From assembly GCA_964016885.1 (NCBI GenBank), contig OZ024755.1:7440001-7504000 (forward strand): a stretch of DNA of 64,000 bases, given 5' to 3'. Each line of letters begins with the position of its first letter. Position 1 is the stretch's first letter. The translations under genes and the position numbers were made by a program. Source of the stretch: Eledone cirrhosa (Eukaryota). Below are positions 314 to 63,811 of this stretch, piece by piece. The notes beneath the pieces are model-generated. The model had not been told where the DNA came from, did not search any database, and worked only from the letters and a program-made list of their open reading frames with translations.

Positions 314-357
<44 letters not shown>
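312..357. repeat. (TA)n microsatellite abutting the Penelope-like element
   Basis: direct reading. Confidence 0.95.
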
Positions 358-359
<2 letters not shown>

Positions 360-572
360 ATAACAAGTTATCGTTATAAGTAATCGAGTTAGAGGTTGTG
401 AGTGCTCTGCGTCGTGGATAGTTTTAACGTACGGCTTTTTTTTACTCAACAAGATGCTTCCATAGTTATGCAGCGAGTTCGCGGTAATTTCTATGCAGGT
501 TATACTTGGAGTAATAATAGTTAAAGAATGACGATTAACATAGTTGGCTGTGAAATAAGGGCTTTATTTAAA

Positions 573-683
573 GTATTGACAATTGTTTCGTTGATCATGT
601 GGGTCTAGAGCTCGCTAATCGCTTGAGGTTGCGTTATTCGATCTCCAATACATTATTCACCTCTTGTCAACACACCAGAGTAC
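573..683 (-). ncRNA. Degenerate type-I hammerhead-ribozyme-like motif in PLE terminal region
   Basis: Minus strand: gtact-CTGGTGT-gttga..(long stem II)..tcaac-GAAA-caattg-TC-aatac; core differs from CUGAUGA at 2 positions. Confidence 0.5.
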
Positions 684-1039
684 GTAGATATGAAAGTAAT
701 TCACTCGAGGCAAGACTTATATAGAAAAATAGCATATAATTAAAACAATAACATCAATAATAAAATAGCGTATAATCTAAACAATAACATCAATAATAAT
801 ACACATATGGTAAATAGGTAGAGAAGTTACAGATGTAAAATATAAGATAGGGTACATTAAAAAGTAAGAAAATGAGAGAATGGAAAATATAAAGAGGTAA
901 ATAAATAAATAAGTGAGAGCGTGTAAGTACATAGTAGTAGTTTTTGAGTAAGTGTTCTTATAAGGATTCGTTGGTAGGAAACTAGATTCGAGATGTACAT
1001 AGAAACGTGTAGAGGGTCCGATAAAAGAGACAATAAATT

Positions 1040-2614
1040 AGAGATTAATTGCTGGATGCAAATGGTTCTTCATGGCGTGTCTGTGGACGTACCACCTTTT
1101 CTTGAACTTGCCAGTCGTAGAACCTATGTAGTGCCAGGTAGAATTGCCTGAATTCACAGTACATAGGTATACCATACTTAAATCCAGGCATCTATTCCGT
1201 AGTGGGCACTTCTCCGGTAGGTGGCAATTACAATTTGAGGTTTTATTTTGTGCAGGTTCATCGTTGCGGTTTTGTAAATTTTTGGGGGTGGGTTGTGATT
1301 TAGGCCTATTAATGTTTTGTTGTGATGTCTTCTGATGCGTTTGTGGTTGTGATGCTGTTTGTGTTTTGTATTTGGTGCTATGGTGCGTGTTGGTAGGTTA
1401 ATTTCTTTAGAGATATTTTTCTGATTGATCTTACGTATGTGCGATTCTATGTTGGCTGCAGTAGAGTAGGAAAGTTTTATAGTTTTTCTATTAAAGATTT
1501 TATGGTATTTGTGTAGTGTAGGGAAGTGCTTACCTATTAGTTTAAAGAATGTAGAAGGTAGTTTAGTTTTTATAGAGCAGTTGAATATTGGATTGAACCA
1601 TAGGTACTTTCTATCTCTGGATATTCTATAGTATTTGGGGCTCCTTATATTAGTGTTCTGTTCGGTTATTTTTGGTGCTCATTGTCTAACTCTATGCTTA
1701 GTCCTATGCTTTTTATTTCTATATGAGCGGGTAGTGTTGCTGTCGTTAGGTTTGTTATTGTTGTCTCTATCTAGTATGTATTCCAGCTTCTCTTTATGTC
1801 CAGCCTTATGTAAAGCTATGTTATAATAGTTTGCGTGTTCGTTAAACATTTCTAGGTTCGAAGATAGGCGGGATATTCTGAGGGATATAATATGTGCTAT
1901 GGAGTTAATTATGAATCGGGGGTGGTTTGAGTTATAACTAATGTAGGCTAGATTTTCGTTATTCTTATGGAAGGGTTCTATTAATCCCGTGTTTAGGTTG
2001 AGAGTTACATCTAAGAAATTTGCTTTTTTAGAGTTAAGTTCGAAAGTGATACCTAGGCCTAGTTTTTTGAAGAATACTCTGTTTTTTCTTAATCTTTCCA
2101 TGTTCTATCAGATATTTTCAGTCTTTTTACTATGCTAAGTCCTTCCTTATTAATGCTAGTGAGTGCAGATTCTGTTGTTGTTTTTTTTGTATTTTTTGTA
2201 CAATTCCCGGCGTATAAAATTATTGTATGTATTGAGGCTCATTGTGTATACGTTTGATATTTTGTCTGCTTTTACTATAATACCGTTGGTGTTGCGTATT
2301 TTTTTTTAGTAGTGCATTGATGTCGTTTTGCAACTTGTTGTGATGTGTCTGTTTTTTTAATTTAGTTCCACTTATCATGTTCATGAGGTCGAGTTCGAAG
2401 GCATTGAGCTAGGGGTTATTTTGCAGGAATTGAATCCGTATTTTTCCCTAGTAAATTCCTCCGTGTTATTAGCGTGTCCTTTGTCGTAATGGTAGGCCTT
2501 CCATCGGATTCGACGGATGAAATCATTTGTACGCTGTATCATGCCGAGTGTATAGTCCTTGTTTGTAGGTATAGGTATGTTTTTCAGTGACATGCCTATG
2601 TGGTGCTTTTCCAT
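1040..2614 (-). pseudogene. PLE polyprotein remnant: N-terminus, RT thumb, CxCx5C linker, truncated GIY-YIG endonuclease; RT palm deleted near 2101
   Basis: ORFs 2381..2614 and 1679..2101 plus the frameshifted downstream GIY-YIG motif (MVY...YIG); stops and frameshifts; jumps from ...LKISDR to ERLRK, skipping the RT core seen in the 47.9-kb copy. Confidence 0.85.
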
Positions 2615-2812
2615 GTTAGTACCGTGCGTTAAGGTTATTGCTCAACCTAGTGGGAGCTGGGTATATGGGATAACAAGTTATCGTTATAGGTAATCGAGTT
2701 AGAGGTGTATTTTATTTAACTTTGTCTTGTTTATCTAAACACTTTTTTTAATAAAACCATGTATAACGTTTTATTAGCTTATTTCATCGTAAACATCGAT
2801 TGTTTTCTACCT

Positions 2813-3626
2813 TACTCGCTAACACTTTCACTCTCTCACTCTTGTTGTTCCCCCTCTCTCTCTAATAAATACCCCCCCCCTTCTCTCTATATGTACTCTT
2901 TCACACACACACACACACACGCACACGCACACGCACACGCACACGCACACACGCGCACGCGCGCGCGCATTGATATATAGGTATATATCAACGTATATAA
3001 ACACAAACATATACAGAAATATACAGACATATAAAACGTTTGAAATGGTGGCAAAATTCCCCCAATATCAATAGCTCTTGATTACAAAATGCTAAACATA
3101 GCAGATTAACCTCCCTACAACCGCAGAACATGCTAGAAATAGCAGCTAAAGTATTCCTCAAATTACACATCCGATGCCATGTTAAATGCTAGAAACAGCA
3201 GAAAAATAACGTCTTCTAGTGACATTTTAAATAACAACGAAATTTCCTTCAAGTTATAACGGTAATGGTGTTAGAAACTGCTAGAAAAAGCAGCCAAATC
3301 TACGCGTAAACATATAAACTGTTAGTTAAAATTCCCCATAAATATATAGATTTTAATATAAATTCGAGAATCGTAATCTACATATTTTAATACGTATCTC
3401 TACAAAATTTCAATTAAAAAGATGCAATATTAAGAAAGTTATTAAAGAAACAATATAGGAGGGGGGGGGGATTTAATCATATAAAAAGTTACGGTCAATG
3501 GGAAATAACTCAAAAAAAAATATTTGAACGATTTACTTGCCCTTGAAAACGCTAAAACCTACCGCCTAACCGGCCAGCCAGTTGTAATGGCGTATAGCTG
3601 GCCGGTTAGGCGGTAGGTTAGGGAAG
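2813..3626. repeat. Satellite head module copy 1 (CT-rich start, (CA)n, palindrome, AT-rich body, perfect 23-bp hairpin)
   Basis: Near-identical to 16460-17274 (offset ~13640-13648). Confidence 0.92.
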
Positions 3627-6600
3627 GTTCAACTACGTAGTCAGTACTAATGTTCAACATGATAGCCAGTACATATGCCAACCACCCAACCGGCCAGCCA
3701 GCCGTAATAGCGGTTGGTTGGTTGGTTGGGCGGTTGGTATAGGGAAAGTTCAACTACGTAGTCAGTACTAATGTTCAACATGATAGCCAGTACATATGCC
3801 AACCACCCAACCGGCCAGCCAGCCGTAATAGCGGTTGGTTGGTTGGTTGGGCGGTTGGTATAGGGAAAGTTCAACTACATAGTCAGTACTAATGTTCAAC
3901 ATGATAGCCAGTACATATGCCAACCACCAAACCGGCCAGCCAGCCGTAATGGCGTTTGGTTGGTTGGTTGGGCGGTTGGTATAGGGAAAGTTCAACTACG
4001 TAGTCAGTACTAATGTTCAACATGATAGCCAGTACATATCCCAACCACCAAACTGGCCAGCCAGCCGTAATGGCGTTTGGTTGGTTGGTTGGGCGGTTGG
4101 TATAGGGAAAGTTCAACTACGTAGTCAGTACTAATGTTCAACATGATAGCCAGTACATATGCCAACCACCAAACTGGCCAGCCAGCCTTAATGGCGTTTG
4201 GTTGGTTGGTTGGGCGGTTGGTATAGGGAAAGTTCAACTACGTAGTCAGTACTAATGTTCAACATGATAGCCAGTACATATGCCAACCACCAAACCGGCC
4301 AGCCAGCCGTAATGGCGTTTCGTTGGTTGGTTGGGCGGTTGGTATAGGGAAAGTTCAACTACGTAGTCAGTACTAATGTTCAACATGATAGCCAGTACAT
4401 ATCCCAACCACCAAACTGGCCAGCCAGCCGTAATGGCGTTTGGTTGGTTGGTTGGGCGGTTGGTATAGGGAAAGTTCAACTACGTAGTCAGTACTAATGT
4501 TCAACATGATAGCCAGTACATATGCCAACCACCAAACTGGCCAGCCAGCCGTAATGGCGTTTGGTTGGTTGGTTGGGCGGTTGGTATAGGGAAAGTTCAA
4601 CTACGTAGTCAGTACTAATGTTCAACATGATAGCCAGTACATATGCCAACCACCAAACCGGCCAGCCAGCCGTAATGGCGTTTGGTTGGTTGGTTGGGCG
4701 GTTGGTATAGGGAAAGTTCAACTACGTAGTCAGTTCTAATGTTCAACATGATAGCCAGTACATATCCCAACCACCAAACTGGCCAGCCAGCCGTAATGGC
4801 GTTTGGTTGGTTGGTTGGGCGGTTGGTATAGGGAAAGTTCAACTACGTAGTCAGTACTAATGTTCAACATGATAGCCAGTACATATGCCAACCACCAAAC
4901 TGGCCAGCCAGCCGTAATGGCGTTTGGTTGGTTGGTTGGGCGGTTGGTATAGGGAAAGTTCAACTACGTAGTCAGTACTAATGTTCAACATGATAGCCAG
5001 TACATATGCCAACCACCCAACCGGCCAGCCAGCCGTAATGGCGTTTGGTTGGTTGGTTGGGCGGTTGGTATAGGGAAAGTTCAACTACGTAGTCAGTACT
5101 AATGTTCAACATGATAGCCAGTACATATGCCAACCACCAAACTGGCCAGCCAGCCGTAATAGCGGTTGGTTGGTTGGTTGGGCGGTTGGTATAGGGAAAG
5201 TTCAACTACATAGTCAGTACTAATGTTCAACATGATAGCCAGTACATATGCCAACCACCAAACCGGCCAGCCAGCCGTAATGGCGTTTGGTTGGTTGGTT
5301 GGGCGGTTGGTATAGGGAAAGTTCAACTACGTAGTCAGTACTAATGTTCAACATGATAGCCAGTACATATCCCAACCACCAAACTGGCCAGCCAGCCGTA
5401 ATGGCGTTTGGTTGGTTGGTTGGGCGGTTGGTATAGGGAAAGTTCAACTACGTAGTCAGTACTAATGTTCAACATGATAGCCAGTACATATGCCAACCAC
5501 CAAACTGGCCAGCCAGCCGTAATGGCGTTTGGTTGGTTGGTTGGGCGGTTGGTATAAGGAAAGTTCAACTACGTAGTCAGTACTAATGTTCAACATGATA
5601 GCCAGTACATATGCCAACCGGCCAGCCAGCCGTAATGGCGTTTGGTTGGTTGGTTGGGCGGTTGGTATAGGGAAAGTTCAACTACATAGTCAGTACTAAT
5701 GTTCAACATGATAGCCAGTACATATGCCAACCACCAAACTGGCCAGCCAGCCGTAATGGCGTTTGGTTGGTTGGTTGGGCGGTTGGTATAGGGAAAGTTC
5801 AACTACGTAGTCAGTACTAATGTTCAACATGATAGCCAGTACATATGCCAACCACCCAACCGGCCAGCCAGCCGTAATGGCGTTTGGTTGGTTGGTTGGG
5901 CGGTTGGTATAGGGAAAGTTCAACTACATAGTCAGTACTAATGTTCAACATGATAGCCAGTACATATGCCAACCACCAAACCGGCCTGCCAGCCGTAATA
6001 GCGGTTGGTTGGCTGGTTGGTATAGGGAAGGTTCAACTACGTAGTCAGTACTAATGTTCAACATGATAGCCAGTACATATGCCAACTACCAAACCGGCCT
6101 GCCAGCCGTAATAGCGGTTGGTTGGCTGGTTGGGCGGTTGGTATAGGGAAAGTTCAACTACGTAGTCAGTACTAATGTTCAACATGATAGCCAGTACATA
6201 TGCCAACCAACCAACCGGCCTGCCAGCCGTAATAGCGGTTCGTTGGTTGGTTGGGCGGTTGGTATATGGAAAGTTCAACTACGTAGTCAGTACTAATGTT
6301 CAACATGATAGCCAGTACATATGCCAACCACCCAACCGGCCTGCCAGCCGTAATAGCGGTTCAGTTGGTTGGTTGGGCGGTTGGTATAGGGAAAGTTCAA
6401 CTACGGAGTCAGTACTAATGTTCAACATGATAGCCAGTACATATGCTAACCACCCAACCGGCCTGCCAGCCGTAATAGCGGTTCAGTTGGTTGGTTGGGC
6501 GGTTGGTATAGGGAAAGTTCAACTACGTAGTCAGTACTAATGTTCAACATGATAGCCAGTACATATGCCAACCACCCAACCGGCCTGCCAGCCGTAATAG

Positions 6601-9600
6601 CGGTTCAGTTGGTTGGTTGGGCGGTTGGTATATGGAAAGTTCAACTACGTAGTCAGTACTAATGTTCAACATGATAGCCAGTGCATATACCAACCACCCA
6701 ACCGGCCTGCCAGCCGTAATAGCGATTCGTTGGTTGGTTGGTTGGGCGGTTGGTATAGGGAAAGTTCAACTACGTAGTCAGTACTAATGTTCAAAAAAAT
6801 AGCCAGTTCATATGCCAACCAGCCAACCGGCCAGCCAGCCGTAATAGCGGTTGGTTGGTTGGTTGGGCGGTTGGTATAGGGAAAGTTCAACTACGTAGTC
6901 AGTACTAATGTTCAACATGATAGCCAGTACATATGCCAACCACCAAACTGGCCAGCCAGCCGTAATAGCGCTTGGTTGGTTGGGCGTTTGGTATAGGGAA
7001 AGTTCAACTACGTAGTCAGTACTAATGTTCAACATGATAGCCAGTGCATATGCCAACCACCCAACCGGCCTGCCAGCCGTAATAGCGGTTCGTTGGTTGG
7101 TTGGTTGGGCGGTTGGTATATGGAAAGTTCAACTACGTAGTCAGTACTAATGTTCAACATGATAGCCAGTGCATATGCCAACCAGCCAACCGGCCAGCCA
7201 GCCGTAATAGCGGTTGGTTGGTTGGTTGGGCGGTTGGTATAGGGAAAGTTCAACTACGTAGTCAGTACTAATGTTCAACATGATAGCCAGTACATATGCC
7301 AACCACCAAACTGGCCAGCCAGCCGTAATAGCGCTTGGTTGGTTGGGCGGTTGGTATAGGGAAAGTTCAACTACGTAGTCAGTACTAATGTTCAACATGA
7401 TAGCCAGTACATATCCCAACCACCAAACCGGCCAGCCAGCCGTAATGGCGGTTGGTTGGCTGGACGGGCGGTTGGTATAGGGAATGTTCAACTACGTAGT
7501 CAGTACTAATGTTCAACATGATAGCCAGTACATATCCCAACCACCAAACCGGCCAGCCAGCCGTAATGGCGGTTGGTTGGCTGGACGAGCGGTTGGTATA
7601 GGGAATGTTCAACTACGTAGTCAGTACTAATGTTCAACATGATAGCCAGTACATATGCCAACCACCAAACCGGCCAGCCAACCGTAATGGCGGTTGGTTG
7701 GCTGGACGGGCGGTTGGTATAGGGAATGTTCAACTACGTAGTCAGTACTAATGTTCAACATGATAGCCAGTACATATGCCAACCACCAAACCTGCCAGCC
7801 AGCCGTAATAGCGGATGGCTGGTTGCTTGGGCGGTTGGTATAGGGAAAGTTCAACTACGTAGTCAGTACTAATGTTCAACATGATAGCCAGTACATATGC
7901 CAACCACCAAACCTGCCAGCCAGCCGTAATAGCGGTTGGCTGGTTGCTTGGGCGGTTGGTATAGGGAAAGTTCAACTACGTAGTCAGTACTAATGTTCAA
8001 CCTGATAGCCAGTACATATGCCAACCAACCAACCGGCCTGCCAGCCGTAATAACGGTTGGTTGGTTGGTTGGGTGGTTGGTATAGGGAAAGTTCAACTAC
8101 GTAGTCAGTACTAATGTTCAACATGATAGCCAGTACAATAGCCAACCACCAAACTGGCCAGCCAGCCGTAATAGCGGTTGGTTGGGCGGTTGGTATAGGG
8201 ACGTTCAACTACGTAGTCAGTACTAATGTTCAACATGATAGCCAGTACAATAGCCAACCACCAAACTGGCCAGCCAGCCGTAATGGCGGTTGGTTGGTTG
8301 GTTGGGCGGTTGGTATAGGGAAAGTTCAACTACGTAGTCAGTACTAATGTTCAACATGATAGCCAGTACATATGCCAACCACCAAACCGGCCAGCCAGCC
8401 GTAATGGCGGTTGGTTGGTTGGTTGGGCGGTTGGTATAGGAAATGTTCAACTACTTAGTCAGTACTAATGTTCAACATGATAGCCAGTACAATAGCCAAC
8501 CACCAAACTGGCCAGCCAGCCGTAATGGCGGTTGGTTGGTTGGTTGGGCGGTTGGTATAGGGAAAGTTCAACTACGTAGTCAGTACTAATGTTCAACATG
8601 ATAGCCAGTGCATATGCCAACCACAAAACCGGCCAGCCAGCGGTAATAGCAGTTGGTTGGGCGGTTGGTATAGGGAAAGTTCAACTACGTAGTCAGTACT
8701 AATGTTCAACATGATAGCCAGTACATATGCCAACCACCAAACCGGCCAGCCAGCCGTAATAGCGGTTGGCTGGTTGGGCGGTTGGTATAGGGAAAGTTCA
8801 ACTACGTAGTCAGTACTAATGTTCAAGATGATAGCCAGTACATTATGCCAACCATCCAACCGGCCAGCCAGCCGTAATAGAGTTTGGATGGTTGGTTGGG
8901 CGGTTGGTATAGGGAAAGTTCAACTACGTAGTCAGTACTAATGTTCAACATGATAGCCAATACATATGCCACCCACCAAACCAGCCAGCTAGCCGTAATA
9001 GAGTTTGGTTGGTTGGTTGGGCGGTTGGTATAGGGAAAGTTCAACTACGTAGTCAGTACTAATGTTCAACATGATAGCCAGTACATATGCCAACCACCAA
9101 ACCGGCCAGCCAGCCGTAATAGCGGTTGGCTGGTTGGGCGGTTGGAATAGGGAAAGTTCAACTACGTAGTCAGTACTAATGTTCAACATGATAGCCAGTA
9201 CATATCCCAACCACCAAACTGGCCAGCCAGCCGTAATGGCGTTTGGTTGGTTGGTTGGGCGGTTGGTATAGGGAAAGTTCAACTACGTAGTCAGTACTAA
9301 TGTTCAACATGATAGCCAGTACATATGCCAACCACCAAACTGGCCAGCCAGCCGTAATGGCGTTTGGTTGGTTGGTTGGGCGGTTGGTATAGGGAAAGTT
9401 CAACTACGTAGTCAGTACTAATGTTCAACATGATAGCCAGTACATATGCCAACCACCCAACCGGCCAGCCAGCCGTAATGGCGTTTGGTTGGTTGGTTGG
9501 GCGGTTGGTATAGGGAAAGTTCAACTACGTAGTCAGTACTAATGTTCAACATGATAGCCAGTACATATGCCAACCACCAAACTGGCCAGCCAGCCGTAAT

Positions 9601-12600
9601 GGCGTTTGGTTGGTTGGTTGGGCGGTTGGTATAGGGAAAGTTCAACTACGTAGTCAGTACTAATGTTCAACATGATAGCCAGTACATATGCCAACCACCC
9701 AACCGGCCAGCCAGCCGTAATGGCGTTTGGTTGGTTGGTTGGGCGGTTGGTATAGGGAAAGTTCAACTACATAGTCAGTACTAATGTTCAACATGATAGC
9801 CAGTACATATGCCAACCACCAAACCGGCCTGCCAGCCGTAATAGCGGTTGGTTGGCTGGTTGGTCGGTTGGTATAGGGAAGGTTCAACTACGTAGTCAGT
9901 ACTAATGTTCAACATGATAGCCAGTACATATGCCAACTACCAAACCGGCCTGCCAGCCGTAATAGCGGTTGGTTGGCTGGTTGGGCGGTTGGTATAGGGA
10001 AAGTTCAACTACGTAGTCAGTACTAATGTTCAACATGATAGCCAGTACATATGCCAACCAACCAACCGGCCTGCCAGCCGTAATAGCGGTTCGTTGGTTG
10101 GTTGGGCGGTTGGTATATGGAAAGTTCAACTACGTAGTCAGTACTAATGTTCAACATGATAGCCAGTACATATGCCAACCACCCAACCGGCCTGCCAGCC
10201 GTAATAGCGGTTCAGTTGGTTGGTTGGGCGGTTGGTATAGGGAAAGTTCAACTACGTAGTCAGTACTAATGTTCAACATGATAGCCAGTACATATGCTAA
10301 CCACCCAACCGGCCTGCCAGCCGTAATAGCGGTTCAGTTGGTTGGTTGGGCGGTTGGTATAGGGAAAGTTCAACTACGTAGTCAGTACTAATGTTCAACA
10401 TGATAGCCAGTACATATGGCAACCACCCAACCGGCCTGCCAGCCGTAATAGCGGTTCAGTTGGTTGGTTGGGCGGTTGGTATATGGAAAGTTCAACTACG
10501 TAGTCAGTACTAATGTTCAACATGATAGCCAGTACATATGCTAACCACCCAACCGGCCTGCCAGCCGTAATAGCGGTTCAGTTGGTTGGTTGGGCGGTTG
10601 GTATAGGGAAAGTTCAACTACGTAGTCAGTACTAATGTTCAACATGATAGCCAGTACATATGCCAACCACCAAACTGGCCAGCCAGCCGTAATAGCGCTT
10701 GGTTGGTTGGGCGGTTGGTATAGGGAAAGTTCAACTACGTAGTCAGTACTAATGTTCAACATGATAGCCAGTGCATATGCCAACCACCCAACCGGCCTGC
10801 CAGCCGTAATAGCGGTTCGTTGGTTGGTTGGTTGGGCGGTTGGTATATGGAAAGTTCAACTACGTAGTCAGTACTAATGTTCAACATGATAGCCAGTGCA
10901 TATGCCAACCAGCCAACCGGCCAGCCAGCCGTAATAGCGGTTGGTTGGTTGGTTGGGCGGTTGGTATAGGGAAAGTTCAACTACGTAGTCAGTACTAATG
11001 TTCAACATGATAGCCAGTACATATGCCAACCACCAAACTGGCCAGCCAGCCGTAATAGCGCTTGGTTGGTTGGGCGGTTGGTATAGGGAAAGTTCAACTA
11101 CGTAGTCAGTACTAATGTTCAACATGATAGCCAGTACATATGCCAACCACCAAACCGGCCAGCCAACCGTAATGGCGGTTGGTTGGCTGGACGGGCGGTT
11201 GGTATAGGGAATGTTCAACTACGTAGTCAGTACTAATGTTCAACATGATAGCCAGTACATATCCCAACCACCAAACCGGCCAGCCAGCCGTAATGGCGGT
11301 TGGTTGGCTGGACGGGCGGTTGGTATAGGGAATGTTCAACTACGTAGTCAGTACTAATGTTCAACATGATAGCCAGTACATATGCCAACCACCAAACCGG
11401 CCAGCCAACCGTAATGGCGGTTGGTTGGCTGGACGGGCGGTTGGTATAGGGAATGTTCAACTACGTAGTCAGTACTAATGTTCAACATGATAGCCAGTAC
11501 ATATGCCAACCACCAAACCTGCCAGCCAGCCGTAATAGCGGATGGCTGGTTGCTTGGGCGGTTGGTATAGGGAAAGTTCAACTACGTAGTCAGGTACTAA
11601 TGTTCAACTACGTAGTCAGTACTAATGTTCAACATGATAGCCAGTACATATGCCAACCACCAAACCTGCCAGCCAGCCGTAATAGCGGATGGCTGGTTGC
11701 TTGGGCGGTTGGTATAGGGAAAGTTCAATTACGTAGTCAGTACTAATGTTCAACATGATAGCCAGTACATATGCCAACCACCAAACCTGCCAGCCAGCCG
11801 TAATAGCGGATGGCTGGTTGCTTGGGCGGTTGGTATAGGGAAAGTTCAACTACGTAGTCAGTACTAATGTTCAACATGATAGCCAGTACATTATGCCAAC
11901 CATCCAACCGGCCAGCCAGCCGTAATAGAGTTTGGATGGTTGGTTGGGCGGTTGGTATAGGGAAAGTTCAACTACGTAGTCAGTACTAATGTTCAACATG
12001 ATAGCCAATACATATGCCACCCACCAAACCAGCCAGCTAGCCGTAATAGAGTTTGGTTGGTTGGTTGGGCGGTGGGTATAGGGAAAGTTCAACTACGTAG
12101 TCAGTACTAATGTTCAACATGATAGCCAGTACATATGCCAACCACCAAACCGGCCAGCCAGCCGTAATAGCGGTTGGCTGGTTGGGCGGTTGGAATAGGG
12201 AAAGTTCAACTACGTAGTCAGTACTAATGTTCAACATGATAGCCAGTACATATGCCAACCACCCAACCGGCCAGCCAGCCGTAATGGCGTTTGGTTGGTT
12301 GGTTGGGCGGTTGGTATAGGGAAAGTTCAACTACGTAGTCAGTACTAATGTTCAACATGATAGCCAGTACATATGCCAACCACCAAACTGGCCAGCCAGC
12401 CGTAATGGCGTTTGGTTGGTTGGTTGGGCGGTTGGTATAGGGAAAGTTCAACTACGTAGTCAGTACTAATGTTCAACATGATAGCCAGTACATATGCCAA
12501 CCACCCAACCGGCCAGCCAGCCGTAATGGCGTTTGGTTGGTTGGTTGGGCGGTTGGTATAGGGAAAGTTCAACTACGTAGTCAGTACTAATGTTCAACAT

Positions 12601-15600
12601 GATAGCCAGTACATATGCCAACCACCAAACTGGCCAGCCAGCCGTAATGGCGTTTGGTTGGTTGGTTGGGCGGTTGGTATAGGGAAAGTTCAACTACGTA
12701 GTCAGTACTAATGTTCAACATGATAGCCAGTACATATGCCAACCACCCAACCGGCCAGCCAGCCGTAATGGCGTTTGGTTGGTTGGTTGGGCGGTTGGTA
12801 TAGGGAAAGTTCAACTACATAGTCAGTACTAATGTTCAACATGATAGCCAGTACATATGCCAACCACCAAACCGGCCTGCCAGCCGTAATAGCGGTTGGT
12901 TGGCTGGTTGGTCGGTTGGTATAGGGAAGGTTCAACTACGTAGTCAGTACTAATGTTCAACATGATAGCCAGTACATATGCCAACTACCAAACCGGCCTG
13001 CCAGCCGTAATAGCGGTTGGTTGGCTGGTTGGGCGGTTGGTATAGGGAAAGTTCAACTACGTAGTCAGTACTAATGTTCAACATGATAGCCAGTACATAT
13101 GCCAACCAACCAACCGGCCTGCCAGCCGTAATAGCGGTTCGTTGGTTGGTTGGGCGGTTGGTATATGGAAAGTTCAACTACGTAGTCAGTACTAATGTTC
13201 AACATGATAGCCAGTACATATGCCAACCACCCAACCGGCCTGCCAGCCGTAATAGCGGTTCAGTTGGTTGGTTGGGCGGTTGGTATAGGGAAAGTTCAAC
13301 TACGTAGTCAGTACTAATGTTCAACATGATAGCCAGTACATATGCTAACCACCCAACCGGCCTGCCAGCCGTAATAGCGGTTCAGTTGGTTGGTTGGGCG
13401 GTTGGTATAGGGAAAGTTCAACTACGTAGTCAGTACTAATGTTCAACATGATAGCCAGTACATATGCCAACCACCCAACCGGCCTGCCAGCCGTAATAGC
13501 GGTTCAGTTGGTTGGTTGGGCGGTTGGTATATGGAAAGTTCAACTACGTAGTCAGTACTAATGTTCAACATGATAGCCAGTACATATGCTAACCACCCAA
13601 CCGGCCTGCCAGCCGTAATAGCGGTTCAGTTGGTTGGTTGGGCGGTTGGTATAGGGAAAGTTCAACTACGTAGTCAGTACTAATGTTCAACATGATAGCC
13701 AGTACATATGCCAACCACCAAACTGGCCAGCCAGCCGTAATAGCGCTTGGTTGGTTGGGCGGTTGGTATAGGGAAAGTTCAACTACGTAGTCAGTACTAA
13801 TGTTCAACATGATAGCCAGTGCATATGCCAACCACCCAACCGGCCTGCCAGCCGTAATAGCGGTTCGTTGGTTGGTTGGTTGGGCGGTTGGTATATGGAA
13901 AGTTCAACTACGTAGTCAGTACTAATGTTCAACATGATAGCCAGTGCATATGCCAACCAGCCAACCGGCCAGCCAGCCGTAATAGCGGTTGGTTGGTTGG
14001 TTGGGCGGTTGGTATAGGGAAAGTTCAACTACGTAGTCAGTACTAATGTTCAACATGATAGCCAGTACATATGCCAACCACCAAACTGGCCAGCCAGCCG
14101 TAATAGCGCTTGGTTGGTTGGGCGGTTGGTATAGGGAAAGTTCAACTACGTAGTCAGTACTAATGTTCAACATGATAGCCAGTACATATGCCAACCACCA
14201 AACCGGCCAGCCAACCGTAATGGCGGTTGGTTGGCTGGACGGGCCTTTGGTATAGGGAATGTTCAACTACGTAGTCAGTACTAATGTTCAACATGATAGC
14301 CAGTACATATCCCAACCACCAAACCGGCCAGCCAGCCGTAATGGCGGTTGGTTGGCTGGACGGGCGGTTGGTATAGGGAATGTTCAACTACGTAGTCAGT
14401 ACTAATGTTCAACATGATAGCCAGTACATATGCCAACCACCAAACCGGCCAGCCAACCGTAATGGCGGTTGGTTGGCTGGACGGGCGGTTGGTATAGGGA
14501 ATGTTCAACTACGTAGTCAGTACTAATGTTCAACATGATAGCCAGTACATATGCCAACCACCAAACCTGCCAGCCAGCCGTAATAGCGGATGGCTGGTTG
14601 CTTGGGCGGTTGGTATAGGGAAAGTTCAACTACGTAGTCAGTACTAATGTTCAACTACGTAGTCAGTACTAATGTTCAACATGATAGCCAGTACATATGC
14701 CAACCACCAAACCTGCCAGCCAGCCGTAATAGCGGATGGCTGGTTGCTTGGGCGGTTGGTATAGGGAAAGTTCAATTACGTAGTCAGTACTAATGTTCAA
14801 CATGATAGCCAGTACATATGCCAACCACCAAACCTGCCAGCCAGCCGTAATAGCGAATGGCTGGTTGCTTGGGCGGTTGGTATAGGGAAAGTTCAACTAC
14901 GTAGTCAGTACTAATGTTCAACATGATAGCCAGTACATAAGCCAACCACCAAACCTGCCAGCCAGCCGTAATAGCGGTTGGCTGGTTGCTTGGGCGGTTG
15001 GTATAGGGAAAGTTCAACTACGTAGTCAGTACTAATGTTCAACCTGATAGCCAGTACATATGCCAACCAACCAACCGGCCTGCCAGCCGTAATAGCGGTT
15101 GGTTGGTTGGTTGGGTGGTTGGTATAGGGAAAGTTCAACTACGTAGTCAGTACTAATGTTCAACATGATAGCCAGTACAATAGCCAACCACCAAACTGGC
15201 CAGCCAGCCGTAATAGCGGTTGGTTGGTTGGTTGGGCGGTTGGTATAGGGAACGTTGAACTACGTAGTCAGTACTAATGTTCAACATGATAGCCAGTACA
15301 ATAGCCAACCACCAAACTGGCCAGCCAGCCGTAATGGCGGTTGGTTGGTTGGTTGGGCGGTTGGTATAGGGAAAGTTCAACTACGTAGTTAGTACTAATG
15401 TTCAACATGATAGCCAGTACATATGCCAACCACCAAACCGGCCAGCCAGCCGTAATGGCGGTTGGTTGGTTGGTTGGGCGGTTGGTATAGGGAATGTTCA
15501 ACTACGTAGTCAGTACTAATGTTCAACATGATAGCCAGTACAATAGCCAACCACCAAACTGGCCAGCCAGCCGTAATGGCGGTTGGTTGGTTGGTTGGGC

Positions 15601-16463
15601 GGTTGGTATAGGGAAAGTTCAACTACGTAGTCAGTACTAATGTTCAACATGATAGCCAGTACATATGCCAACCACCCAACCGGCCAGCCAGCCGTAATAG
15701 CGGTTGGTTGGGCGGCTGGTATAGGGAAAGTTCAACTACGTAGTCAGTACTAATGTTCAACATGATAGCCAGTACATATGCCAACCACCCAACCGGCCAG
15801 CCAGCCGTAATAGCGGTTGGTTGGGCGGTTGTTATAGGGAAAGTTCAACTACGTAGTCAGTACTAATGTTCAACATGATAGCCAGTACATTATGCCAACC
15901 ATCCAACCGGCCAGCCAGCCGTAATAGAGTTTGGATGGCTGGTTGGGCGGTTGGTATAGGGAAAGTTCAACTACGTATTCAGTACTAATGTTCAACATGA
16001 TAGCCAGTACATGTGCCAACCACCCAACCGGCCAGCCAGCCGTAATAGCGGATGGCTGGTTGGGCGGTTGGTATAGGGAAAGTTCAACTACGTAGTCAGT
16101 ACTAATGTTCAACATGATAGCCAGTACATTATGCCAACCATCCAACCGGCCAGCCAGCCGTAATAGAGTTTGGATGGTAGGTTGGGCGGTTGGTATAGGG
16201 AAAGTTCAACTACGTAGTCAGTACTAATGTTCAACATGATAGCCAGTACATATGCCACCCACCAAACCAGCCAGCTAGCCGTAATGGAGTTTGGTTGGTT
16301 GGTTGGGCGGTTGGTATAGGGAAAGTTCAACTACGTAGTCAGTACTAATGTTCAACATGATAGCCAGTACATATGCCAACCACCAAACCGGCCAGCCAGC
16401 CGTAATAGCGGATGGCTGGTTGGGCGGTTGGTATAGGGAAAGTTCAACTACGTAGTCAGTACT
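3627..16463. repeat. 121-bp satellite array 1 (~106 monomers)
   Basis: Consensus GTTCAACTACGTAGTCAGTACTAATGTTCAACATGATAGCCAGTACATATGCCAACCACCCAACCGGCCAGCCAGCCGTAATAGCGGTTGGTTGGTTGGTTGGGCGGTTGGTATAGGGAAA; ORF track repeats every 121 bp. Confidence 0.98.
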
Positions 16464-16560
16464 CTTTAACCCTCTCACTCTTGTTGTTCTCCTTCTCTCT
16501 CTAATATTTACCCTTCCCCCTTCTCTCTATATGTACTGTTTTCACTCTCTTTCACACACG

Positions 16561-16616
<56 letters not shown>

Positions 16617-17274
16617 GATATATAGGTATATATCAACGTATATAATCACAAACATATACAGAAATATACAGACATATAAAACGTTTGAAATGGTGGCAAC
16701 ATTCCCCCAATATCAATAGCTCTTGATTACAATATGCTAAACATAGCAGATTAACCTCCCAACAACCGCAGAACATGCTAGAAATAGCAGCTAAAGTATT
16801 CCTCAAATTACACATCCGATGCCATGTTAAATGCTAGAAACAGCAGAAAAATAACGTCTTCTAGTGACATTTTAAATAACAACGAAATTTCCTTCAAGTT
16901 ATAACGGTAATGGTGTTAGAAACTGCTAGAAAAAGCAGCCAAATCTACGCGTAAACATATAAACTGCTAGTTAAAATTCCCCATAAATATATAGATTTTA
17001 ATATAAATTCGAGAATCGTAATCTACATATTTTAATACGTATCTCTACAAAATTTCAATTAAAAAGATGCAATATTAAGAAAGTTATTAAAGAAACAATA
17101 TAGGAGGGGGGGGGGGGGATTTGATAACATAAAAAGTTACGGTCAATGGGAAATAACTCACAAAAAAATATTTGAACGATTTACTTGCCCTTGAAAACGC
17201 TAAAACCTACCGCCTAACCGGCCAGCCAGTGGTAATGGCGGATAGCTGGCCGGTTAGGCGGTAGGTTAGGGAAG
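16460..17274. repeat. Satellite head module copy 2
   Basis: Direct repeat of 2813-3626 (ORFs 2988..3170 vs 16633..16815; 3559..3753 vs 17207..17401). Confidence 0.92.
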
Positions 17275-47200: not shown

Positions 47201-47912
47201 AAGTTCAACTACGTAGTCAGTACTAATGTTCAACATGATAGCCAGTGCATATGCCAACCACCAAACCGGCCAGCCAGCCGTAATAGCGGTTGGTTGGTTG
47301 GTTGGGCGGTTGGTATAGGAAAAGTTCAACTACGTAGTCAGTACTAATGTTCAACATGATAGCCAGTGCATATGCCAACCACCCAACCGGCCAGCCAGCC
47401 GTAATGGCGGTTGGTTGGTTGGTTGGGCGGTTGGTATAGGGAAAGTTCAACTACGTAGTCGGTACTAATGTTCAACATGATAGCCAGTGCATATGCCAAC
47501 CACCAAACCGGCCAGCCAGCCGTAATAGCGGTTGGTTGGTTGGTTGGGCGGTTGGTATAGGGAAAGTTCAACTACGTAGTCGGTACTAATGTTCAACATG
47601 GTAGCCAGTACATATACCAACCACCCAGCCGGCCAGCCAGCCGTAATGGCGGTTGGCTGGCTGGTTGGGCGGTTGGTATAGGGAACGTTGTACTACGCAG
47701 TCAGTACTAATGTTAAAAAATGTAGCCAGTACATATACCAACCGGCCAGCCAGTCGTAATGGCGGTTGGTAAATGTAACGTTCAACTACGCAGCCAGCAC
47801 TAAAGTTGAACATGGTAGCCACTACATATACCAACCGCCCAACCAATCTCCATTAAGGCTGACTGGCCGGTTGGGTGGTGGGTATATGTACTGGCTACCA
47901 TGTTGAACTTTA
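17275..47912. repeat. 121-bp satellite array 2 (~250 monomers) with higher-order duplications, ending in an inverted partial monomer
   Basis: Same consensus; HOR offsets 2178, 488, 4734 and 11776 bp from diagnostic variants; fold-back at 47801-47912. Confidence 0.98.
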
Positions 47913-48863
47913 CAAAAAAACAACAGAATCTGCACTCACTAGCATTAATAAGGAAGGACTTAGCATAGTAAAAAGACTGAAAATATCTGATACAACCGGA
48001 CCCCTAACCTCTTGTTACGCCACATTTAACCTAAAGGATCACAAAAATGATTTCGAAATAGAACCCACAATTTGATTAATATGCCCATCTAAGTCTGATA
48101 TCGGTAGAATTAACAAGTATATACTAGATAGAGTAATCGCTCAAATTAAGGACAGACTAGTGATTAAGCTATGGGGTAACTCTAACGAAGCAATAGACTT
48201 GTTCAGCAAAATAAACAGTGGAGAAACATCCTACTTCATACAATTCGACATTAATGACTACTACTCATCCATTTCTCCAGTCACCCTGGGTAAAGCGCTA
48301 ACCTTTGCCCCAAAATTCGGACCTTACCTCGGACAAAGTTAAAATAATACTAGCTGCTAGAAGGATTATCATTAGATTCGAAAATAGTTACTGGGAACGA
48401 AAAAACAGACAGAATAGCTTCGATATCACAATGGGATCTAACGACTCAGCGCAAGTAACGGGGTTGATGGGAATATATATACCGCACAACTTACATAAGG
48501 AATCCAATAACCTCACATACGTAAATTCAATAACCGCGCATACGTAAGATCAACGACAAAAATATCTCTAAAGAAATTAACCTACCAACACGCACCATAG
48601 CACCAAATACAAAACACAAACACATAACAACATCACAACCACAAACGCATCAGAAGACATCACAACAAAACATTAATAGGCCTATATCACAACCTGCACA
48701 AAATAAAACCTCAAATTGTAATTGCCACCTACCGGATAAGTGCCCACTACGGAATAGATGCCTGGATTCAAGGATGGTATACCTGTGTACTGTGAATTCA
48801 GGCAATTCTATCTGGCACTACATAGGTTCCACGGGTGGGAAGTTCAAGAAAAGGTGGTACGTC
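47911..48863 (+). mobile_element. Second fragment of the same PLE family (RT fingers/palm part + linker + GIY-YIG start), pseudogenised
   Basis: 47911-47990 and 48538-48863 match the reverse complement of ~2105-2190 and ~1087-1442; peptides LKDHKNDF, QFDINDYYSSIS, FDITMGSNDSAQV, CNCHLPDKCPLRNRCLDSRMVYLCTV..YIGST; stops and frameshifts. Confidence 0.88.
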
Positions 48864-48994
48864 AAAACAAATCACATTTAGAGTTAAACACCAACACAAA
48901 ATTGGAAACTTATTGGTCAATTCGATTGAGAACACTATATTAATGTTCGCATACCATGCACTTTATACTCCCCGAAGAATACTGAATTAATAAT

Positions 48995-49186
48995 AATTGT
49001 TTCTACGTTAAGCGCAAGACCAGCAATTACCCTAGTGCATTACTGGTACTTTATTTTATCGACCCCGTAAGGATGAAAGCAAAGTTAACCTCGGCGGGAT
49101 TTGAACTCAGAACGAAAAATGGCCGTAACTCTATACGTCAAAGCATGTTGTCAGACGCTCTACCGACACTGCCAATCCACCGCCTG
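48995..49186 (-). mobile_element. tRNA-derived SINE (family A)
   Basis: Minus-strand B-box GAGTTCAAATCC followed by the conserved core ..TTTCATCCTTACGGGGTCGATAAAATAAAGTACCAG; many copies in this window. Confidence 0.8.
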
Positions 49187-49187
49187 A

Positions 49188-49189
49188 TG

Positions 49190-49224
<35 letters not shown>

Positions 49225-49290
49225 TGTTTCTACGTTAGGCACAAGGCCAGCAATTCACCAGTGTATTACTGGTACTTTATTTTATCGACA
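49188..49290 (-). mobile_element. (AAT)n tract plus truncated family A SINE 3' part
   Basis: ttctacgttaggcacaaggccagcaatt..actggtactttattttatcgac repeats 49000-49063. Confidence 0.7.
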
Positions 49291-49975: not shown

Positions 49976-50017
49976 AAGTTTCAACGTTTCGGAAAGAAGT
50001 CTTTCTTCAGGAAATTT
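49976..50017 (-). ncRNA. Minimal type-I hammerhead ribozyme motif (PLE-type)
   Basis: Minus strand aaatttc-CTGAAGA-aagacttctttcc-GAAA-CG-TT-gaaactt; stem I pairs 6/7; palindromic ACGT in place of stem III; ~80 bp from a (TA)n tract. Confidence 0.55.
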
Positions 50018-50661: not shown

Positions 50662-51971
50662 ATTACTTAATGTATTGACATAAAACTGGTAAGGAAAATT
50701 AAACGAAGTACAATCAGATGCCGCCTGATAGTCAAAGTTTCTTGCTATTTAGCTTAAAATATATCTTAATAATAGTCAAACACGCATACATTCTCTCTCC
50801 CTCCATCTCTCTCTCTCTCTCACACACATATTATTCCATTTTTCTTCTATTCGTTTCTCATATGTTCTGATGTTTTCGCAACTTAAGCAACAAATATCAT
50901 CCCATTCGGTCAACGACACGGTATTCAGCAATGTATATAAATAGGGTTAAACATGCTTCAATCATGTTTTAATATTTGCGAAATATTTCTTAATATGCAA
51001 TGACTCAAGTCTGCATAGTTTATTTAAGAACTTTTAACAAAACCCTTTCTCACATTTTTTTATGTATTAACACAATATTCATAGAATTTATGTAATTTAT
51101 TTATTCTCAACTCCTCTCTCTCTTTCTCCCCCTTATCTCGCTCTCTCTCCCCCTTATCTCTCTCGCTCTCTCTCGCTTTTTCGGTCTTTCTTTTCAATGT
51201 ACATTCTATTGTTGGCAAATAATTTGCTTATGCATCAGTAAATCTACTGAAAGGTGGGTGAATGTAGCAAAAAATGGCCCGAGTGATTGGGCCTTCTCTG
51301 TATATAAACCTGTAGGGTGAAGAAGAGAGCAAAAGGAAGAAAGGAGCACTTGCACAACACGCTCCTGGAGTTGAGGGTTGTTCTATCGACGGGGTTTTAA
51401 ACAACCCATTTGTAACGCCCCCTCCCCTATTGGGGATTTCGATTATTAAATTTGTTTGTTTTAATAATATTTTTACACGACTGTATGTAAAATCCCCGGC
51501 ATGTGTCTTCGTATTGTCCCATTTTCTTGTGCGCCCTTGTTGCAAATAAAGAAATATATCTTATCCCTCTTGCCTTCTTTACACACTCACACACACATGT
51601 GTGTGTGTGTGTGTGTGTACAATAAATATGGTTTATTTATTCAGTTTGTAATTAAACATGATGTCTCCATTATTACAAGCTAAAAACAAAATCAAACAGA
51701 TTCAAACATTAAAACTGAATAAAATATATTAAAATATCAAATAAATAATGTATCGAACATTTATTTAACATAAATGATGTTAAAACCTACCGAATACATC
51801 TATTACATAGACTTAATAGGAAATATATAAAGGATGTCAAGTTTTCATACTTCAAACGTCAACTATAATGTACAAATATAAAAATTATATGTTTATAGAT
51901 ATTTCTCTTTATATACAAATATAAGGAAAAGTACTCAAAATATAAAATATTTTTAATGGCATTAATAATTG

Positions 51972-52150
51972 TTTCCACTTTTGGCACAAACCAGCAATTA
52001 TCCCAGTGTATTACTGGTACTTTATTTTATCGACCCCGTAGGATGAAAGGCAAAGTTAACCTCGGCGGGATTTGAACTCAGACCATAAAGGGACGTAACT
52101 GTGCTGCAAAGCATGGCGTCCGACCCTCTACCGATACTGCCAATCCACAT
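51972..52150 (-). mobile_element. tRNA-derived SINE (family A)
   Basis: Same core and ggatttgaactc B-box as 48995-49186. Confidence 0.8.
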
Positions 52151-58779: not shown

Positions 58780-58920
58780 TTTCTATGTTAGGCACACGGC
58801 CAGCAATTTGAAGGAGAAGGGAAAGGCGATTAAATCGACCCCAGTGCATTACTGGTGCTTTATTTATCGACCCCTTAAGGATGAAAGACAAAGTCAAGCT
58901 CGGCGGGATTTGAACTTCAG
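58780..58920 (-). mobile_element. tRNA-derived SINE (family A)
   Basis: core tttatcgaccccttaaggatgaaag..ctcggcgggatttgaact. Confidence 0.75.
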
Positions 58921-60042
58921 TTATGCAAATAGTGTAGTATTCTACATGCACACATACCCTTATCGTAATTCCCAATAGAATCAGCATGACACAGTGTGTG
59001 ATTTCCAACGGGATTTTATACAGTTCTATCTAACCAGTTTTACTAAGGCTATGGTAAATGACACTTGTTTGAGATATCCCGCTGCGGGATCGAAACCGGA
59101 ACCTTATGATTACGAAGCGAATCTCTTAATCTCTCAGCCATAAATGTTCCCACAATAGTAGCTATAGTAGCTGATGAGAGAAGAAACATTGTGTTACATT
59201 AACTGAAAGAAAAGAATAGTAATTATGAAGTGAGTGAAGTTGAAATAATAATAAACAGGAGAATAAATATATTCAGAAATGTGATTATCGTGTCTCATTG
59301 ATTAATTACGGTTGTATTAATATAATTGATTGAATGAGTGAGAATAATTGTTTAGTTTGTCCTGTCACCTCAAGAGAATTGTTATGGTTGTTATTTTTGG
59401 CTTGACTTCAATAACAAGCAACGAACAAGTGGGGCCCTTGTCCTTTCTAGCTATAAAATTAATCAAAATATGAATGTAAAAGACTGATGGATCAAGTCAA
59501 ACTTTCCCTGGCTCAGTTAATAAATATGTAATAGGACTAATAGCATGTTGACTGTCATAACACAGATAATATTGGGTTTATACTGGGCGCCTATCTTACC
59601 TGATTAATCCTATCCCTTGCTGCTATATGATCAATACCCTTATATAAAAGTGCCTTTGTATGTCAACTTGAATTAAATAACAAAACGAATGTTCATTTGT
59701 ATATTTGCAATAAATGTGTGACGAATACGTGGTTGTTGTTGTTGTTGTTGCTGTTGGTGTGTGTGTATGTGGTAACATGAGTTAGATTGTATTAGGTGTC
59801 TGGTGACTGAAAACACTTCAGTTTTACTTAGTTGTCCCTCGTGTCTTTGATATAATTAATCGTTGCTTAGCAATATTCACCTCTCATAAATATAGGTTAA
59901 CACATTTAATTCTAGAGTATATAGTTAACCCTTTGTTGAGTAGCCAAGAGCATTAAAGCAATGAATTAATGGTTTTTCAACGGAATCTATTCTCTTTTCT
60001 CATTTTTATTCTATAAAAAAAGGAACTTATTATCAAATAAGA

Positions 60043-60341
60043 TTAACTCTTTAGCATTTACATTACTCTATATATACTATTGAATTTTCGCAGTAAAGGC
60101 TTTATCTCACATATTTCATATAATATCGAATCTATGAGATTTTGATTATTTATTTTGAGAACAATACCTTAACATCATTATTACGAGGTCGATAAAATAA
60201 AGTACCAGTAATGAACTGGGTAATTGCTGGCCTTGTGCCTAAAGTAAAAACAATTATTAGTGGCCAGTTACAGCCAGTTTGAACAGAAAGAGGTGAGAGA
60301 ATTCTGGCCAGATACAGCCAGTTTAAATGCTAAAGGGTTAA
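60043..60341. mobile_element. piggyBac-like MITE (TTAA-flanked TIRs) with a nested + strand SINE fragment (60187-60255)
   Basis: TTAActctttagcattta ... taaatgctaaagggTTAA (17/18 inverted match); TTAA target site and CCCTT-type end. Confidence 0.7.
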
Positions 60342-60540
60342 GGATACAATATTTCTGTTGTTGATACTATTTATCCATCGCAAGTAAATACAAAGTACAC
60401 CCCTTCCTGCTGAATTAGCCTCGCCTGTCTCCTCACACGAATCTCAAAGACTGGGCGCTTCCATTTCTAAACAAAAACAATTTTTATACCATGCTTTATA
60501 GCTAAAACCTTTCATTCAGAGTAGCTTTACTTAAATAATT

Positions 60541-60712
60541 TTCTACTTTTTGGCACAAGGCCAGCAATTACTCAGTGCATTACTGGTACTTTATTTTATC
60601 GACCCCGTAAGGATGAAAGGTAAAGTTAACCTCGGCAGGATTTGAACTCAGAATGGCAAGGGCCGTAACTCTATGCGTCAAAGCATGGCGTCCGACCCTC
60701 TACCGATACTTC
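60541..60712 (-). mobile_element. tRNA-derived SINE (family A)
   Basis: near-identical to the 51972-52150 copy. Confidence 0.8.
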
Positions 60713-60892
60713 CATGTGTCATTGTAGTTTATTTCAGGCCGTAAAAGTCTGACTTCAAGCGTTACCGTTCAACAAAGACAAGCAGTTGTTGGTTTTGACT
60801 TCACATTCGGTCAAATATATTTGTTTCATATTCATGTACATTTATTCTTTGATGATAAAGGCACAACTAATTCTATCATTTTATATTTTCAG

Positions 60893-61002
60893 TGGGACAA
60901 AGGAGAAAAACGGCCTAACTTGATGAATATCGCATCTTACATAGGTTGTTCTGTATCAGCTGCACTTTGCCTTATCTCATTCGGAATGCTTACCTATCTC
61001 AG
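60893..61002 (+). CDS. Adhesion GPCR exon: stalk + TM1 (WDKGEKRPNLMNIASYIGCSVSAALCLISFGMLTYLR)
   Basis: ttttcag/gtaaat; SYIGCxxS is the classic secretin/adhesion TM1 motif; phase 0 to 2. Confidence 0.9.
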
Positions 61003-61179
61003 GTAAATAACAAGATTCAATTAAGATATATAAATTCCAAATATTAACATCATCTTTACAGATAAAAGATTCTTTTTTTTTCAAATATTACATCTACACT
61101 ACGTTTCGATCTCTAAGTTATCCAATTGATAACAATAAAAAAGGAGTTTGAAATCAAGTTTCCTAAATGAAATACAGTT

Positions 61180-61570
61180 AGGTACAGAAATAAGCCAGCT
61201 GGTGAAGTATGGAGAGGAAAGTCGATTAAATCGATCCTAGTGCGTGACTGATACTTTATTTTATCGACCACGTAAGAATGAAAGGCAAAGCTAACTTAGG
61301 CGGGATTTGAAATAAAGTCACGTAACTCTATACCACGAATCATGGGGTCAGACGCTTTTCAGCTACTGCCAGTCAACCAGCCTATAGTAGGTATTAATAA
61401 TTATTTGTAGCATAGTCACCAGGAGAGGGTGGGCTATAGTTAGATAGAGTAACTTGTGGTATTTCTCCAGCTTTGTGTGCTCTAAGTTCAAATCTCACCG
61501 AAGTCAGCATTGCTTTTCATCTTTCAAGGCTTGCTCAGTAAATAAAGTACCAGTTATATACTGGAATAGA
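61180..61570. mobile_element. Two diverged family A SINE remnants in opposite orientation (61180-61380 minus; ~61475-61570 plus)
   Basis: ttattttatcgacc..gaaaggcaaag..ggatttgaa versus aagttcaaatc..ttttcatc..aaataaagtaccag. Confidence 0.6.
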
Positions 61571-63634: not shown

Positions 63635-63778
63635 CAAATTGGGATATCCTGCCGAGGTTAGCTTTAGCCTTTCGTTCGTACATGATCAATAAAACAAAGT
63701 AGCAGTTATACACTGGAGTCGATCTAATCGACTTTCCCCTCCCTCAAAATTGTTGGCCTTGTGCCTAAATCAGAAACT
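63635..63778 (+). mobile_element. Diverged family A SINE
   Basis: ccgaggttagctttagcctttc..aataaaacaaagtagcag..ggccttgtgcctaa. Confidence 0.6.
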
Positions 63779-63811
63779 TTTATTTAACTAACTTACCATG
63801 TGTCGTGGTGT

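Follow-up and report, generated by a model that had tools for sequence, protein, structure and literature searches.

Does a hairpin whose two arms have changed in sequence and kept their pairing testify to selection on its structure, to a founder state from which its neighbors decayed, or to a single copying event? The question is raised by the first unit of a satellite found in a window of 64 kb (the whole stretch of DNA analysed), which is AT-rich and animal-like and contains many microsatellites. A 121-bp satellite occupies positions 3561–47743 (approximately 365 copies, 91% matches); its long head-to-tail arrangement, its fixed monomer, and the higher-order periods that accompany the 121-bp period are those of a satellite undergoing concerted evolution. 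The array is preceded by a non-coding head of 734 bp (2822–3555, forward strand) and interrupted by a second head (16461–17203). The first block of satellite (3676–16464, forward strand) is made of monomers that each carry an imperfect copy of the hairpin, and the second block (17268–47800, forward strand) displays higher-order periods of 11776, 4734, and 7042 bp. Within 3556–47800 as a whole, these three periods and a fourth of 3048 bp point to recent large block duplications in the array.

The first unit consists of a left arm (3556–3578), an 18-nt loop (3579–3596), a right arm (3597–3619), and a spacer made of two 25-bp subrepeats (3620–3675), all on the forward strand. The right arm is the exact reverse complement of the left one (23 of 23 pairs, 100% complementarity), and the DNA fold of the hairpin reaches −30.8 kcal/mol (z −8.9 and −9.3), with none of 200 shuffles as good. 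The perfect 23-bp stem at 3556–3619, which a preliminary description had reported along with its recurrence at 17204–17267, is thus borne out. The loop region is partly paired further in the monomers. The private changes of the right arm also create TTAGG and TTAGGG words (3597–3627), and over the same positions the right arm and the monomer each have seven to eight GG runs, which could form a two-tetrad quadruplex.

For the comparison with the other units, the array was split at 362 anchors into 361 intervals, of which 352 monomers were kept; the nine that were dropped had aberrant lengths (146 bp in four cases, 93 in two, and 25, 26, and 833 in one each). The spacer of one kept unit, at 16374, continues into the second head, so that the spacer rate given below is slightly too high, and the stem counts are unaffected. 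Relative to the consensus of these 352 monomers, 11 of the 46 stem sites are changed in the first unit, 5 of 23 in the left arm (pairs 1, 2, 5, 9, and 12) and 6 of 23 in the right arm. Three pairs are swapped on both sides: pair 5, from A-T to T-A (3560/3615), pair 12, from C-G to T-A (3567/3608), and pair 1, from T-A to A-T (3556/3619), for the last of which the loss of 1 bp at the outer end of the right arm is an equally good reading. The five remaining differences are one-sided repairs, at pair 2 (G.T to A-T, 3557), pair 9 (A.C to G-C, 3564), pairs 17 and 18 (G.T to G-C, 3603 and 3602), and pair 22 (G.T to G-C, 3598). The double swaps at pairs 5 and 12 noted earlier are therefore real, whereas their count of two has to be raised to three with pair 1; likewise, the repairs already named at pair 9 and at pairs 17–18 (GG.TT to GG-CC) are present, but pairs 1, 2, and 22 had been missed.

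When 11 substitutions were placed at random on the consensus stem, 23 pairs were obtained in none of 300,000 trials, the best trial giving 21; the perfect stem is beyond chance and some process is therefore needed to account for it. The divergence of the stem is accompanied by 6 differences at the 18 positions of the loop and contrasts with that of the spacer (1 of 56; stem versus spacer, Fisher p 0.001), which is identical to the spacer of 27 of the 352 monomers. Because the arms and loop are diverged and the spacer is monomer-like, the hairpin half of the unit appears to be an old edge piece that escaped homogenisation. Passages on the Rsp and 1.688 satellites of Drosophila (PMC5411766) describe array centres that are homogenised more than the ends, and these satellites share with ours a homogeneous centre, diverged ends, higher-order repeats, and mobile-element fragments at both ends; the difference is that the diverged edge unit has, in the present case, perfectly paired arms.

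Selection on structure, which was one of the processes first proposed for the paired changes, finds no echo among the monomers. The consensus monomer is itself a quasi-palindrome, with 18 of 23 Watson–Crick pairs and an 18-nt spacer, and the best-paired of the 352 monomers reaches 20 of 23. Across these monomers we counted 53 distinct variant pair types in the stem (2 two-sided mismatches, 44 one-sided mismatches or wobbles, and 7 one-sided repairs); 44 of the 51 one-sided types thus lead to a non-Watson–Crick pair, and none of the 53 is a two-sided Watson–Crick change, so that the search for covariation within the array monomers came out negative. Pair 12 is C-G in 181 monomers and a broken A.G in 156, and variation amounts to 4.4% at stem sites, 4.0% in the loop, and 1.9% in the spacer. 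An Rfam scan of the 64-kb window returned no match at gathering score. Perfect stems of 15 bp inside some monomers were considered as paired changes and rejected, as they correspond to slipped (CCAA)n/(TTGG)n registers.

The second perfect hairpin (17204–17267, forward strand) lies in a duplicated block and is therefore no independent case; the swaps arose once. Its arms (17204–17226 and 17245–17267) are identical to those of the first unit, and the two copies match exactly over 211 bp from 3597. The heads that precede them (2822–3555 and 16461–17203, forward strand) are 94% identical overall, with 9 differences over the 585 bp of the core and 9 over the 79 bp of the CT-rich left part, and the junction between a monomer and the second head falls on a 4-bp microhomology, TACT, which is also present just left of the first head. 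Between the two hairpins, the stem shows 0 differences at 46 sites and the loop 2 at 18, which leans slightly toward constraint and is not significant (Fisher p 0.076); at the rate of the head, the probability of an unchanged stem is 0.49 and that of two loop changes 0.03.

We favor a reading, to which we give a probability of about two in three, in which the arms of the first unit were made identical by one short-range template switch, without any stepwise selection for compensatory changes. Each of the six sites at which the right arm departs from the consensus carries the complement of its partner in the left arm, and one switch therefore explains them all; together with a second switch at the end of the array (see below), this speaks for the intrastrand template-switch correction that had been offered as the other possible process. 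The left arm and loop, lying against the unique DNA of the head, would have escaped homogenisation by unequal crossover and drifted; on reaching the quasi-palindrome, a polymerase would have jumped off its template, made the right arm by reading the left one backward, and returned to the template with the loss of 1 bp at the outer end of the stem. One such switch would turn all left-arm changes into two-sided swaps at once. The block formed by the head and first units would later have been duplicated into the array (from 16461 onward), which would have produced the second copy, and the hairpin itself would do nothing more than act as a hot spot for strand switching. We infer the switch, its direction, and its timing from the states and counts given above. 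The left arm is likely the template and the right arm the copied tract, the direction being less certain than the switch itself: copying from left to right costs five point changes in the left arm (22%, like the loop) and one switch, copying from right to left six changes and one switch, and the former also fits the contig hints presented below better. Two of the five left-arm differences (pairs 2 and 9) are probably ancestral pairs that were lost in the monomers. For the stem to be still perfect, the switch would have to be fairly recent, with a probability of about 0.14 if its time is taken as uniform on an assumed branch of 0.15.

The mechanism is already known, and the feature, although real, would be an ordinary outcome of it. 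Passages on quasi-palindrome correction by short-range template switching (the Ripley model; the four-point model, PMC5453318; hairpin stems, PMC8794818) describe template switches that turn near-perfect inverted repeats into perfect ones and yield apparent compensatory changes without selection. Our locus resembles the cases treated there in that an almost perfect inverted repeat, its arms separated by a short spacer, becomes fully paired, that one reverse-complement copy explains clustered substitutions together with a small indel, and that the sequence between the arms is flipped by an inversion close by; both a pre-existing inverted repeat (18 of 23 pairs, 18-nt spacer) and a one-arm cluster of changes (six of six) are found. 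It differs from them in that the affected sequence is the boundary unit of a satellite, and not single-copy DNA or an RNA gene, and in that the state before the switch is deduced from paralogues instead of an orthologue. In a literature search that covered titles and abstract openings, with few subscription journals, we found no account of this satellite or of template switching in the edge unit of a satellite; the satellite family may already be present in repeat databases. Several seemingly compensatory swaps in one stem can be the work of one copying event and do not prove a selected structure, and an array of approximately 365 quasi-palindromes with marks of strand switching at both edges is a natural case in which to study template switching in satellites.

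The far edge of the array bears the second of these marks. The last full monomer (47615–47735, forward strand), which is the best-paired one with 20 of 23 pairs, is also the monomer nearest to the first unit (13 of 63 differences); it shares pairs 2, 18, and 22 with it and agrees with the other monomers at pairs 1, 5, and 12. The array ends in a terminal foldback (47801–47912), an inverted partial monomer with 44-bp arms that are complementary at 40 of 44 positions. The strand changes at the left arm, after which the sequence runs backward through the hairpin and approximately 30 bp of the preceding subrepeat, and is then directly followed by a retroelement fragment. The inverted unit agrees with the monomers at pairs 1 and 12, and at pair 5 it does not have the base of the first unit. 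This foldback adds a second case of strand switching at the hairpin and supports the tendency of the hairpin to do so.

Related copies of the head were sought in four of six listed public sequencing runs of one organism by comparison with 2975–3680 at 82% likeness, in three runs from one sample (X1–X3) and in a fourth run (X4), which is of RAD-seq type and has no depth over 3479–3680; gaps in contig coverage prove nothing in this material. No RNA data set with the sequence was listed, which carries no information on expression. X1–X3 contain the monomer at high depth, many diverged relatives of the head, and a head contig that is identical over 2976–3160, the only part that it covers. The head is a dispersed multi-copy module, with 33 contigs over position 3421 in each of X1–X3 and five to six over 3532; one contig of 859–861 bp leaves it at 3546 for approximately 320 unlike bases. 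The contigs that continue into the hairpin (two in X1, one in X2, and one in X3) all read T, T, and C at 3554–3556, and every one of them (two of two, one of one, and one of one) has the monomer-type A at 3560, so that T3560 of the first unit is likely derived; the alleles of the first unit at 3554–3560 occur in none of these four covering contigs. The first unit thus has a cluster of private changes at the outer edge of its stem. One hairpin contig carries private changes at three more positions (3563, 3568, and 3571). Its entries among the best 40 of 160 matches, in which the alignment ends at 3607, list no change at 3564 or 3567, from which it may weakly be deduced that this contig has T3567 without A3608, and that, with C at 3568, its pair 3568/3607 is broken; the former point suggests that T3567 would have preceded A3608. 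Among these best 40 of 160 matches, related copies show left-arm states only, and related copies elsewhere may have perfect stems of another sequence, their right arms being unseen in the same matches. Exact scans of metagenome contigs with a 32-nt stretch of the monomer and a 25-nt stretch of the head gave no match.

The first unit had also been seen as a possible seed of the satellite; in a literal founder reading, its perfect hairpin would have been amplified and the copies would then have decayed. A tree built on 64 columns for 84 distinct hairpins (unrooted, with a midpoint root for drawing only, its bootstrap not having settled) places the two perfect-hairpin copies on a branch of 0.22 outside the monomers, weakly beside the far-edge monomer (76/77). 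In favor of this view, the first unit is not nested as a recent derivative of the monomers in this sequence tree, although ancestry is not demonstrable from an unrooted one. Five one-sided differences of the first unit restore pairs, and because three of these pairs (2, 18, and 22) are common to the far-edge monomer, the ancestral monomer was likely better paired than the present ones. Descent of all monomers from the first unit would, however, require three two-sided changes to sweep both arms of every monomer. T3560, T3567, and A3615 (as well as G3564) are present in none of the 352 monomers, the far-edge monomer and the inverted terminal unit have the states described above, and related head copies read A at 3560; we thus regard the founder reading, as stated, as very improbable. 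That the perfect stem is an artefact of assembly or polishing at a palindrome is hardly credible: the absence of the alleles of the first unit at 3554–3560 from the four covering contigs of X1–X3 would fit it, but these contigs perhaps come from another individual or species, the near-identical head contig stops well short of the hairpin at 3160, and the stem occurs twice, 13.6 kb apart, each time with its own loop and head differences.

A more serious rival, which we nevertheless regard as rather improbable, has the hairpin serve as an origin, nick, or termination signal in a Helentron/HINE-like non-autonomous element made of the head, hairpin, and repeats; selection for mobility would keep the pairing, and template switches may supply the changes that it retains. 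The dispersal of the head, some copies of which run into a related hairpin, and the 0/46 versus 2/18 differences in stem and loop between the two copies argue for it, as does the order of microsatellite, conserved segment, and array, which is that of the left module of oyster HINEs as passages of PMC7492417 present it. Cg_HINE of Crassostrea gigas (PMC7492417) and DINE-1/HINE (PMC4067079) are likewise described, in the parts consulted, as having a dispersed left module, a microsatellite, and a repeat array. According to the same passages, however, such elements have subTIRs of 11–15 bp at both ends, with the inverted-repeat partner at the 5′ end, and a short palindrome that lies at the 3′ end, in a conserved right module of approximately 60 bp, and not in the first repeat. 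An exact 8-mer search detected no subTIR or inverted-repeat pair, only one low-complexity 8-mer being inverted between the left end of the head and the right end of the array; both ends abut retroelement fragments and such a pair may have been lost. The reported distance between microsatellite and array in HINEs is 10–500 bp in these passages, compared with 585 bp here from a dinucleotide microsatellite, the (CA)n at approximately 2904–2970, of a kind common across the window; moreover, our array has approximately 365 units, each monomer with a long hairpin, and it terminates on the right in a foldback of monomer DNA. Further marks of such elements are insertion at TT without target duplication, empty sites, and a Rep/helicase partner. 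Against a selected signal also stand the absence of covariation in the monomers, the broken pair 3568/3607 implied by one related copy among the matches listed, and the head contig that departs at 3546. Having compared the locus also with the HINE passages of PMC8268682, we do not class the head and array as a HINE.

Somewhat less probable still is that the head, hairpin, and repeats constitute an undescribed mobile element of rolling-circle type, with the first hairpin as functional signal kept perfect by recurrent template switching and selection; with no better odds, the satellite would then be a runaway amplification of the signal and the far-end foldback the matching product of termination. 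If so, the edge hairpin alone would be in use, for which reason the inner monomers would decay, and, were an element reading true, a hairpin replication signal would be linked directly to the birth of a satellite. A further point of comparison is offered by tandem repeats derived from MITEs via stem-loops (Hikosaka and Kawahara; Izsvak et al., as summarised in passages of PMC8268682), in which a hairpin-bearing unit is also amplified in tandem and fold-back synthesis has been proposed; our head differs in having no demonstrated terminal inverted repeats or target-site duplication. Alongside the single template switch that we prefer, it is plausible that the array grew from a head-plus-hairpin element, inside a mobile-element-like head whose ends were not found.

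The head comprises a CT-rich tract, the (CA)n, a short palindrome, and four 15-bp motifs. The motif TGCTAGAAATAGCAG (up to three mismatches) occurs at 3090, 3131, 3187, and 3279 in the first head and at 16735, 16776, 16832, and 16924 in the second; in other members of the head family found in contigs, two such motifs are joined by differing spacers of 23–31 nt, and these pairs resemble the subterminal binding-site repeats of a DNA transposon. The palindrome beside the (CA)n is perfect over 13 bp with a 2-nt loop at 16612–16639, and shorter at approximately 2971–2991. The possibility that the last 60 bp of the head derive from the monomer spacer by an ancient inverted duplication, which would make a larger hairpin-centred palindrome, was rejected (p 0.20–0.50 against shuffles and 0.34–0.68 against flank windows).

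Outside the hairpin, the array is flanked by fragments of one retroelement family, one per side and both pointing away from it. The left fragment (352–2706, reverse strand), which we take to be Penelope-like from its motifs, is broken into ORF pieces with cluster matches to PF26215, a family present on 33% and 61% of cluster members; when four ORF pieces of the flanks were scanned against Pfam, no relevant family came up, and the two weak matches, both on one piece, were unrelated. The right fragment (47914–48863, forward strand), a second broken copy that abuts the foldback, is 97.6% identical to the left one over 83 bp and 84% over 368 bp, in inverted orientation. The left fragment also has a 45-bp direct repeat (352–396 and 2662–2706). 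Core motifs resembling a hammerhead were seen by eye near the retroelement ends, on the reverse strand, at approximately 2760–2795 (decayed) and at 49980–50010, neither of which had an Rfam match at gathering score. The left flank contains a perfect palindrome with 19-bp arms and no loop (256–293). The right flank has a SINE tail that looks to us octopus-type, and a short interspersed repeat, presumably SINE-like, is present in approximately ten copies that are 75–91% alike (48990–49290, 51960–52150, 58800–61400, and 63640–63780).
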